Below, piece after piece: positions 31,453 through 52,694 of a stretch of 53,122 bases of DNA. The notes beneath the pieces are model-generated. The model had not been told where the DNA came from, made no database searches, and saw only the letters and a list, made by a program, of their open reading frames with translations. Source of the DNA: a virus; the IMG/VR virus record IMGVR_UViG_3300017971_000065, one strand, 5' to 3'. Each line of letters begins with the position of its first letter. Positions within the stretch are counted from its first letter, which is position 1. A program made the position numbers and the translations under genes.

Positions 31453-31515
31453 ATATGCCTTTCTTACTGGTGGAGATAAAAAATATCTCTGACAAAAAAA
31501 TCAGGAGGTAAAAAA

Positions 31516-31755
31516 ATGGATGATATAGATAATATCTTATCTCTAAACCTTCCATCCGAAAACTCGAACGCTGGACGATGGAAGGGGGGGAGATATGATA
31601 CCAGTAAGAAAGAAGAAATGCAGAAATGGAACAACCTTAAGAATATGGTAAGGTATCAAGGAGACAATAACGTTGAGGTAAAAAATCGACTTGACAATCT
31701 CGCCTCTGCAATCGACCAAGGAATACTGGAAATAAGAAAAGTCAAGACGAAGTAG
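31516..31755 (+). CDS. Hypothetical protein (79 aa)
   Basis: AGGAGGT SD 7 nt upstream. Confidence 0.6.
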   Translation: MDDIDNILSLNLPSENSNAGRWKGGRYDTSKKEEMQKWNNLKNMVRYQGDNNVEVKNRLDNLASAIDQGILEIRKVKTK

Positions 31756-50104: not shown

Positions 50105-50309
50105 AAGCCGTGTATGGTATCAGAGATACAAATCACTTGCGGAACTGCTCAAGAAAGGAAACTGTGAGAACCCGGTTGAAGTCCTGAAGCAAGTGGACAA
50201 GACGATAAACGATGCCAGAGGATACGGATATGACCATGTTGCGTGTTCGGCCTGGGAATCGCTACAACAAGTCGTCGAGGACATGGGATGGGAATGGAAA
50301 GACAATTAG
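50049..50309 (+). CDS. Hypothetical protein (86 aa)
   Basis: GGTGATGATAATG start context. Confidence 0.45.
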   Translation: MHKKIPDEFKSKKELDKIRSRVWYQRYKSLAELLKKGNCENPVEVLKQVDKTINDARGYGYDHVACSAWESLQQVVEDMGWEWKDN

Positions 50310-50698
50310 AACCTGTCCCAAAAATCCTCTATCATTGCACCAGACTTGACAAGGTCGATACGATACTGAAGGAAGGTCTGAAGGTCAATACACCATTGAG
50401 TCCTGTCAACAAGAGAGTTTACAACAAGAAGGGCGTATATCTATCAACAGAGATGTTTGGATGGATGTATTGGGCAACTGACGATCACACACATAGAGGA
50501 GCTGTAATCACAATCAATGTTGAAGGTCTGGAACTCATTGAGGACAGTGACCTTCTGGTAATCAGCGAGGCAGACGGAGAGGTAAAGAACAGAAATCTCA
50601 TGGACTACATTTGTCCTAACGATATTGAACCAGAGAGAATAATTGCTGTGTCCAGAGAGCAGGATGACAATAGTTTCGTAGAGGAGAGGATAAGATGA
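50294..50698 (+). CDS. ADP-ribosyltransferase-fold protein resembling the NAD-binding C-lobe of RNA 2-prime-phosphotransferase Tpt1/KptA
   Basis: PKILYHCT..VDTILKEGL...GVYLS...HRGAVITINV parallels the E. coli KptA segment PQFLYHGT..LDEIKKQGL...YVHLS...HGSPVILTV. Confidence 0.5.
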   Translation: MERQLEPVPKILYHCTRLDKVDTILKEGLKVNTPLSPVNKRVYNKKGVYLSTEMFGWMYWATDDHTHRGAVITINVEGLELIEDSDLLVISEADGEVKNRNLMDYICPNDIEPERIIAVSREQDDNSFVEERIR

Positions 50699-51041: not shown

Positions 51042-52064
51042 ATGAAACAGAAATATGAGTCATACAATATGACACAGCGACTTCTCGACCAGATTAAAGT
51101 TATCAACGGTGTTGTTGAGTCCTATGCCAAACAGGGCTATAAATTGACATTGAGGCAACTGTATTACCAGTTGGTTTCCAGAGGAATAATCCCAAACAAA
51201 GACACCGAATACAAGAAACTATCAGATTTACTCGTAAAGGCGAGGATGTCTGGTCTTGTCGATTGGGACGCGATAGAGGACAGGACAAGGGTTCCGAAGC
51301 TCGATTACTCAGTTGACGACATTCCAGATGCCATTGACGATACCATCAGTCAGTACAAGTTAGAACGATTACAAGACCAGAAAGTGTATATCGAAGTCTG
51401 GTGCGAGAAGGACGCATTGAGCAACATCCTTCGGAGAATGACCAACAAATTCCATGTCAGGTTGATGATAAACAAAGGATACTCAAGTGCAAGTGCAATG
51501 TATCGTGCGGCCCAAAGGTTCAGGAGACACGGAACAGGAAAGAAAAAGATACTTCTGTATCTTGGTGACCATGACCCTTCGGGACTCGACATGATAAGGG
51601 ACATAGGCGATAGATTGAATACATTCGGCGTAAGACTGGACACACCAGACGGTTATCCGATTCACTTGGGTATTACAAGAGAACAGGTCGAGGAATACGA
51701 ACCGCCTGAAAATCCAGCAAAGATTACTGACCCACGAGCCGAGTGGTACATCGAAGAACATGGAGAAAGTTCATGGGAAGTCGATGCTCTCGAACCATCA
51801 GTCCTAAACGAGTTGATCGAGAACGAGATATTCGAGTGGATTGATGAGGACAGGTTCAGGAACAAAGTCAAGCAAGAGAACGTTGACAAGTTGAAACTTG
51901 AAAATCTCAAGGACTTGATCGATGACCTCGATGTAAATATCGAAGTGTCATGTGTGAACTGTTCTGAACAAGTCCAGGCCGATGACGATGATACTATATA
52001 CGACATGGATGATGACAAATGGTTCTGTGGTAATGAGTGTCACGATGAATACAATGCCGAGTAA
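51042..52064 (+). CDS. Topoisomerase VI subunit A / Spo11-like protein (mini-A type: 5Y-CAP plus Toprim) with C-terminal zinc finger
   Basis: TLRQLYYQL (catalytic-Tyr motif, compare RDIYY), VWCEKDAL (Toprim Glu), LGDHDPSGLDM (Toprim DxD). GGTGATGTGATG start context. Confidence 0.7.
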   Translation: MKQKYESYNMTQRLLDQIKVINGVVESYAKQGYKLTLRQLYYQLVSRGIIPNKDTEYKKLSDLLVKARMSGLVDWDAIEDRTRVPKLDYSVDDIPDAIDDTISQYKLERLQDQKVYIEVWCEKDALSNILRRMTNKFHVRLMINKGYSSASAMYRAAQRFRRHGTGKKKILLYLGDHDPSGLDMIRDIGDRLNTFGVRLDTPDGYPIHLGITREQVEEYEPPENPAKITDPRAEWYIEEHGESSWEVDALEPSVLNELIENEIFEWIDEDRFRNKVKQENVDKLKLENLKDLIDDLDVNIEVSCVNCSEQVQADDDDTIYDMDDDKWFCGNECHDEYNAE

Positions 52065-52084
52065 TCGGCAACCTTTACCTTTAT

Positions 52085-52235
52085 GGGTCTGTGGCTCAGT
52101 TAGGCAGAGCGTCGGGCTTTTAAGGTCATGTGGCGAGGTTCACTATCTCCGTTCCAAGCTGAATGATGAGAAACTGATTGACCCACATGATTTGGAGATA
52201 CCCGATGGTCGCAGGTTCAAATCCTGCCAGACTCG
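52085..52235 (+). tRNA. tRNA-Lys (anticodon UUU) with a 77-nt intron at position 37/38 (52123-52199)
   Basis: Hand fold: acceptor GGGTCTG/CAGACTC, D arm GCTC/GAGC, anticodon stem TCGGG/CCCGA, loop CTTTTAA, T arm GCAGG-TTCAAAT-CCTGC. No encoded CCA. Confidence 0.85.
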
Positions 52236-52260: not shown

Positions 52261-52397
52261 AGCGAGGTAGGGTAGTCTGGTAATCCCAATGGGCTCATGA
52301 GTCGGATGTGAAGTTTCTGCCCTGATCCTCCACTGATGACACCAGTCACCATGATTGAGAAACCCATTAATCTGTGGTTCGAATCCACACCTCGCTA
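52261..52397 (+). tRNA. Initiator-like tRNA-Met (anticodon CAU) with a 62-nt intron (52300-52361) in a canonical bulge-helix-bulge context
   Basis: A1:U72. Anticodon stem ATGGG/CCCAT gives three G:C pairs at 29-31:39-41. T arm TGTGG-TTCGAAT-CCACA. Central 4-bp helix CTCA/TGAG flanked by 3-nt bulges TGA and AAA. Confidence 0.8.
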
Positions 52398-52399
52398 TC

Positions 52400-52557
52400 G
52401 GGTAACACCGACACATGGCAGGTAGCATGAAGTCCGGTCTATCTGAAGTCGCCGAATGCGTGTACTGGTGGCTATCGGGCGTGATGCCACATCTTCTTTG
52501 CTGGCTGGCATTAGAAACTCCAACAGAGCACGATACTACGGTTTGTCGGTGTTATCC
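52400..52557 (+). ncRNA. Unclassified structured element: 14-bp long-range helix enclosing 130 nt
   Basis: GGGTAACACCGACA (52400-13) pairs with TGTCGGTGTTATCC (52544-57), one G:U. An inner hairpin GTGGC/GCCAC lies at 52468-52490. Confidence 0.35.
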
Positions 52558-52561
52558 ATAT

Positions 52562-52666
52562 CCGTCGATGATGAGTGCGACCAGAGTTGATCCATCAGAT
52601 GCTTGAGAAAAGGGACTGCTGCACTGCCCTGTTGGGAGATGACATAGTTCCTCTAAACTGAGACGG
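52562..52666 (+). ncRNA. Box C/D sRNA candidate
   Basis: Terminal stem CCGTC/GACGG, C box ATGATGA (52568-74), 12-nt spacer, TTGA (52587-90), AGATGA (52637-42), D box CTGA (52658-61) abutting the stem. Confidence 0.4.
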
Positions 52667-52694
52667 ATAATCATTCGCATATGGATGTGATGTG

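Follow-up and report, generated by a model that had tools for sequence, protein, structure and literature searches.

We examined what is almost certainly a conserved structured RNA encoded by the virus record IMGVR_UViG_3300017971_000065 (IMG/VR), whose DNA of 53,122 nucleotides (nt) was analysed as a whole and is referred to below as the window. The window is a complete circular genome of 53 kb with a 123-nt terminal repeat; it is that of a tailed archaeal virus, with terminase and major capsid matches as tailed-virus markers and a PCNA gene that spans its two ends. The closest cellular PCNAs to the viral protein come from Methanomassiliicoccales and other Thermoplasmata, a proximity that suggests, and does not prove, that the host of the virus group is probably found among these lineages. 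The RNA itself (158 nt, positions 52400–52557, plus strand) lies in a cluster that runs from a Mini-A gene (ending at 52064) through two intron-containing tRNA genes, the structured RNA and a gene resembling a box C/D small RNA (sRNA) to the PCNA gene (starting at about 52692). A tRNA-Lys(UUU) gene (52085–52235) opens the cluster and is followed by an initiator-type tRNA-Met gene (52261–52397, discriminator base A52397), both on the plus strand.

The RNA is closed by a 14-bp helix, P1, formed by a 5′ arm at 52400–52413 and a 3′ arm at 52544–52557 (13 Watson–Crick pairs and one G–U), and two bases separate this helix from the tRNA-Met discriminator. A preliminary description, made from the window alone, had pointed out this helix together with an inner hairpin (52468–72/52486–90, extended by 3 bp at 52474–76/52483–85), and both were confirmed. 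Its judgement that 53 kb would hardly contain such a helix by chance did not survive: Markov simulations that count 14-bp helices with at most one G–U pair expect 0.39 per window at spacings of up to 300 nt and 0.16 at up to 160 nt, and a second long-range helix of 14 bp (13 consecutive Watson–Crick pairs) is present at 31459–31612. That second helix sits in an A+T-rich region where the GC skew changes sign, likely a divergent promoter or origin region. The chance of finding such a helix within the 627-nt intergenic region is 15/3000 (0.5%). As a single sequence, the whole segment folds barely better than its shuffles (z = −1.4, not significant), a weak score attributable to the fact that pseudoknots are not scored in the folding. 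The real evidence for the element is its conservation and covariation in relatives, not the length of the helix.

Relatives were reached through homologs of the viral PCNA, which led to syntenic contigs (denoted here by L numbers), and in one case (L216) through a motif scan of metagenomes. The element is present in seven other viral contigs: five copies are full-length (L183 8293–8456, L185 559–723, L253 8804–8962, L254 2268–2436 and L192 about 80–240), one is partial (L248 1–75, the 3′ half) and one is circularly permuted (L216, minus strand, 3267–3140). Six further assemblies of the window virus carry an identical copy. In L183/L184, L185, L253 and L254 the element lies directly 3′ of an initiator-type tRNA-Met gene; that of L185 (424–557) is a tRNA-Met-like gene with an intron, not reported by Rfam, which the RNA follows at the usual 2-nt distance. 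L216 derives from a more distant virus and carries PCNA and twelve tRNA matches. On the PCNA tree L253, which carries the RNA, is the deepest branch of the viral clade, and L216, which also carries it, stands as a separate lineage; this distribution suits an ancient feature that has been lost in some lines. In six of the seven complete copies (the window, L183, L185, L253, L254 and, with a different helix in that position, L216) pairing starts 2 nt past a tRNA discriminator.

Cognate P1 arms pair at −18 to −30 kcal/mol, and in five of the six unpermuted copies they do so beyond all 2000 shuffles (0/2000 each). The arms of the window pair poorly with those of other copies, so that across these five copies the sequence of P1 varies and its pairing is kept; the helix is perfect in the window and L254 and differently bulged in L183, L185 and L253. 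Inside P1, an invariant CAUG and a single G/U form a linker (52414–52418) that leads into the P2 hairpin (52419–52445, pairing 52419–25 with 52439–45), where six of seven pairs show double-sided changes and 98% of cells are paired. The 13–14 nt loop of P2 carries the 5′ strand of pseudoknot 1 (52431–52436: 2 bp, a bulged U of 1–2 nt, then 3 bp), whose 3′ strand (52539–52543) continues straight into P1. None of the seven copies lacks this pseudoknot, which takes the form of CCG/CGG, CCA/UGG and CGG/CCG variants, with double-sided changes at two positions.

A conserved junction follows at 52447–52457, consisting of AGU, then CGCC (the 5′ strand of pseudoknot 2), then an invariant unpaired GAAU; its AGU can pair with ACU at 52535–37 and is itself invariant. 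The 5′ strand of P3 (52458–52466) pairs with 52525–52533 around an A–A mismatch (5/8 pairs with double-sided changes), and the inner hairpin of the preliminary description becomes P4 (52467–52491, pairing 52467–76/52483–91; 5/9 pairs with double-sided changes). The loop of P4 (52478–81) supplies the 3′ strand of pseudoknot 2, which pairs with 52450–53 and is pairable in 7/7 copies, with variation only to G–U (two C–G to U–G changes); L248 adds a G–C to G–U change, provided that its missing partner is unchanged. A variable arm of 26–38 nt (52492–52524) precedes the 3′ core strand (52525–52543), which comprises the 3′ strand of P3, an invariant UACU and the 3′ strand of pseudoknot 1. All of these features lie on the plus strand.

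Across the six unpermuted copies 94% of cells are paired and double-sided changes affect 18 of the 41 pairs, a result matched by 0/500 shuffles; a slide control, with partners shifted, gave 30–44% paired and 1–5 double-sided pairs. When L216 is included, 11 of the 20 core pairs change on both sides. Nearly half of the core columns (46/108) are invariant, mostly in linkers and pseudoknots, and the interior is far more conserved than P1. The compensatory changes in P1–P4 and pseudoknot 1 across the seven homologs support one of the three options offered in the preliminary description, a novel non-coding RNA; a covariation test on homologous viral contigs had been proposed there. The wobble variants are G–U on the plus strand, which is also the tRNA strand, in keeping with the assignment of the RNA to that strand. 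Judged from the aligned sequences, a conserved structured RNA with this fold (P1–P4, two pseudoknots and invariant junctions), which lies on the tRNA strand and occurs as two circular permutations, is as good as certain.

The second permutation rests on one contig, L216. There the only 3′ core strand on the contig precedes the 5′ core by 49 nt, and it complements P3 at 6/6 and pseudoknot 1 at 5/5 positions; the motif of this strand occurs about 3 times per million bases over all loci examined, known copies included. P1 is a closed hairpin in this copy, the variable arm is where the chain is broken open, and the paired region starts 2 nt after the discriminator of a tRNA-Trp (3270). Just after the permuted RNA (minus strand, 3139–3020) we noted a short repeat of a tRNA-Phe 3′ end and trailer followed by several strong hairpins, possibly another structured RNA or a recombination scar. 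Natural circular permutation has been recorded for hammerhead and twister ribozymes, group II introns, 5S rRNA, tmRNA and SRP RNA (PMC10085705). Since it is known in few RNAs, several of which are ribozymes, the permutation tilts the interpretation towards catalysis and does not show it.

Searches for the RNA elsewhere returned little. Rfam 15, at E values up to 10, gave nothing credible; this search, also proposed in the preliminary description, supports the ‘novel’ part of its suggestion. Searches of the literature, from which most subscription journals are missing, turned up no published description. Within IMG/VR, a helix-arm pattern gave chance matches only, three core-motif scans gave no true copy, 62 loci with relatives of Mini-A (most of them rescanned with the RNA model) contained no copy, and queries with the capsid and a radical SAM protein revealed no relative. 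The core-motif scan of metagenomes gave one true copy, L216, among 30 matches. A GTDB scan gave 16 chance matches and no true copy with a pattern that fits only five of the seven known copies, so that cellular copies are possible; cultured phages and plasmids contained none. As far as could be found, the RNA represents a real, undescribed class of structured RNA in archaeal viruses.

The surrounding cluster holds further small RNA features. The box C/D sRNA-like gene (52559–52669, plus strand) begins one base after P1 and has an 8-bp terminal stem, with box C at 52568–74 and box D at 52658–61. It is the only stem-closed C/D pair in the window and is conserved in L182 (1896–2003), at the same 2-nt distance from a tRNA. 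The stretches beside box D and beside an inner D′-like box are conserved between the two, which suggests that they address host RNA targets; a convincing target was not found in the viral genome. Both tRNA introns of the window (52123–52199 and 52299–52360) hold box C- and D-like words; the tRNA-Met intron of L182 differs in sequence, and in L183, L253 and L254 the tRNA has no long intron. Just upstream of the first tRNA is a small hairpin followed by a T/A-rich word (window 52055–52070, L183 8190–8208, L185 410–427, L254 2167–2183, L253 8707–8722), possibly a transcription or processing signal. A small protein with an ADP-ribosyltransferase fold (50243–50698, a weak PARP match) is encoded near the cluster and also in L183/L184.

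We compared the fold with known catalytic RNAs. Theta and other HDV-like ribozymes (PMC10879173) likewise have a double pseudoknot and begin no more than 5 nt from the 3′ end of a viral tRNA (here the distance is 2 nt in six copies), whereas the viral RNA is about twice as long, has both ends closed by P1 and lacks a 7-bp P1 with nested P1.1/P3; moreover, the strand next to the tRNA differs between the permutations, so that it cannot cut at a fixed tRNA junction. The nested P1–P1.1–P2–P3–P4 topology of these ribozymes, counted from the cleavage site, was rejected on the strand order given by covariation and on the lack of an Rfam match, and the only candidate for their invariant catalytic C at the start of J4/2, position 52453, is U in L183 and paired in pseudoknot 2. 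The order of ACU, pseudoknot strand, long stem and AGUC recalls the P7–P3–P8–P7 order of the group I and lariat-capping core, but the partner of the P3-like strand is misplaced, there is no P4–P6 order and there are no splice sites; in place of the guanosine-binding G–C pair beside the bulge of P7, an invariant U faces an invariant C. Domain V of group II introns, defined by a triad helix with a 2-nt bulge and a domain VI after it, was rejected as well: the pairing that resembles it fails in L216, whose pseudoknot 1 survives through a double change, and there is no match to RF00029. Retrons were rejected on a stem that is closed off in the permuted copy and on the lack of a reverse transcriptase among the 20 window proteins scanned, a subset of the open reading frames. 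The glmS, hairpin and hatchet ribozymes, FMN and cobalamin riboswitches, 5S, SRP and Y RNAs and raiA were rejected on topology, not alignment.

The fold and its position suggest a route of biogenesis. The RNA would be co-transcribed with the tRNA cluster, the cut of host RNase Z at the tRNA 3′ end would also create the 5′ end of the RNA, and P1 would shield its ends. We propose RNase Z because the fold starts 2 nt after the tRNA discriminator in six of seven copies; on this spacing the host enzyme probably releases the RNA from the tRNA, and its release as a stable RNA appears likely. Such release has been proposed for the Nanoarchaeum tRNA-Val/sRNA8 precursor (PMC3491384), in which a stable RNA likewise directly follows a tRNA and would owe its 5′ end to RNase Z; the passenger here differs in being a viral RNA with several pseudoknots instead of a C/D guide. 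The helix that faces the tRNA is not the same one in both permutations, which makes an action of fixed geometry on the adjacent tRNA end unlikely, and by comparison with such precursors the position after the tRNA more likely serves the formation of the RNA's own 5′ end than any action on the tRNA.

Once released, the three short core helices and invariant linkers could pack into a compact, metal-binding core. A compact invariant core with clamped ends points to catalysis or tight binding. If catalytic, the core would cut a phosphodiester bond in itself or in a viral tRNA/sRNA precursor, helping the virus to process its own RNA cluster; theta ribozymes provide a precedent for ribozymes beside phage tRNAs (PMC10879173). 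Phosphodiester catalysis of any kind is a substantial possibility and the likeliest of the options named here. We tentatively suggest a new structural class of ribozyme from archaeal viruses, with two or three pseudoknots and two permutations, that would process the viral tRNA cluster; at the extreme, it would be the smallest and most rewired RNase P-like RNA.

Several points weigh against this suggestion or parts of it. The alignment holds only seven complete, mutually related sequences, and its shuffle counts are not probabilities; 63 unrelated column pairs also look compatible among these sequences, so that single pairs prove little and the argument rests on the stacked runs and the slide control. 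Double-sided changes are absent from pseudoknot 2, from the AGU/ACU helix and from the CAUG pairing. This last pairing would join the linker to a second, self-complementary CAUG (52426–29): the two invariant words lie on either side of the 5′ strand of P2, all seven copies have a 7-bp P2 and a 1-nt linker, and from general RNA geometry a third pseudoknot, of the H type, may form here. RNAalifold prefers a nested alternative, 52451–54 paired with 52539–42, which fits 6/7 copies; L216 breaks it but keeps pseudoknot 1 by a double change, which favours the pseudoknot, and a switch between the two pairings is possible. RNAs that bind ligands or proteins are likewise marked by invariant junctions and pseudoknots. 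In L192 the element lies upstream of PCNA with no tRNA in the 80 nt available upstream and with a weak P1 (392/2000 shuffles as good); this copy, which also has an 18-nt insertion (87–104) between P1 and the invariant linker, may be decayed or rearranged. Finally, L182, L193 and L250 lack the RNA beside PCNA, which may mean that it is dispensable; these contigs are fragments, and the RNA could lie elsewhere.

Among the alternatives to a ribozyme, a stable, non-catalytic RNA that acts as decoy or scaffold by binding a protein (host or viral) or a small ligand, such as a defence nuclease, a translation factor or a signalling nucleotide, is credible though doubtful. It would account for the same pattern of conservation of the fold, for the long protective P1 and for the patchy presence among relatives, which is typical of accessory counter-defence functions; against it, no partner gene that tracks with the RNA was identified, and complementarity to viral tRNAs does not exceed 7 nt. 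A special case of catalysis, that the RNA is a drastically reduced and rewired RNase P RNA in which P1 on the bulged-U pseudoknot helix acts as P1/P4 and which trims tRNA 5′ leaders with host proteins, is unlikely. The P1/P4 core of RNase P is indeed the closest resemblance of the RNA, which is nonetheless not a member of that family. As in RNase P RNAs (RF00010, RF00373, and reduced archaeal and mitochondrial forms), a long variable P1 directly adjoins a pseudoknot helix with a bulged U, motifs recalling CR-I, CR-IV and CR-V occur in the same order (52429–36, 52447–57 and 52535–43, compared with the Rfam consensus), and the location is in tRNA clusters; some RNase P RNAs are also known to lose P2, P3, P15 or the specificity domain (PMC12974513). 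The helix is, however, 5 bp (2+3) with a bulge of U, UU or CU rather than 8 bp with one invariant bulged U. The CR-I sequence is closely approached in L183, L192 and L254 and one base short in the window, L253 and L216. The CR-I-like strand forms the loop of a 7-bp hairpin, there is an extra pseudoknot and a natural permutation, and the specificity domain is absent, as are the A-rich CR-V and its final A. The covariation model contains no P5, J5/15 or P15, although P1–P4–P5 are said never to be reduced (PMC12974513), and no RNase P model matched at E values up to 10.

A cis-acting, riboswitch-like leader that controls the PCNA gene is improbable: the RNA does end shortly upstream of PCNA in L183, L185, L192, L248 and L254, but the C/D sRNA intervenes in the window and a K-turn-like RNA in L253, the RNA of L216 lies inside a tRNA cluster more than 1 kb from PCNA, and the ribosome-binding site falls outside P1 in L183, L185 and L254. 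The intervening RNA of L253 (8967–9003) is a short stem with box C and box D words that occupies the slot of the window's C/D sRNA. That the RNA is an atypical C/D or H/ACA modification guide is very improbable; it has a C/D sRNA as neighbour, and words resembling boxes C and D are present in L183, L192 and L248, but these boxes are lost in the window, L185, L253, L254 and L216, and there is no conserved ACA tail or guide pocket (no K-turn hairpin with ACA at 14–16 nt from a pocket). Barely credible, lastly, is that the helix is a splicing-endonuclease processing stem, a translational trap for a real open reading frame, or chance, as its length alone and the bulge-helix-bulge splicing of the adjoining tRNAs might suggest. 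Two of these had been options of the preliminary description, and neither was supported. For the processing or circular-RNA stem, a bulge-helix-bulge (two 3-nt bulges around a 4-bp helix) is not conserved in P1, and P1 is a closed hairpin in L216. For the trap, the frame at 52415–52606 does have 63 codons and no obvious Shine–Dalgarno sequence, but the frame from the conserved AUG measures 63, 13, 30, 37, 20, 27 and 10 codons across the copies and is shifted by a 1-nt indel; on this comparison, the open reading frame is not a gene. The interior is far more conserved than the stem, and covariation refutes this group of readings as sole explanation.

It is rare for a new class of large natural RNA with several pseudoknots to come to light, and almost none have been described from archaeal viruses. 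At about 150 nt, with a core of about 100 nt, the RNA is small enough to be transcribed, probed and assayed directly, and the natural permutation and seven variants serve as ready-made controls. If catalytic, it would extend the known ribozymes by one class or show a new minimal way to the chemistry of RNase P; if it binds a host factor, it would be a new type of RNA-based virus–host tool in methanogen-related archaea.
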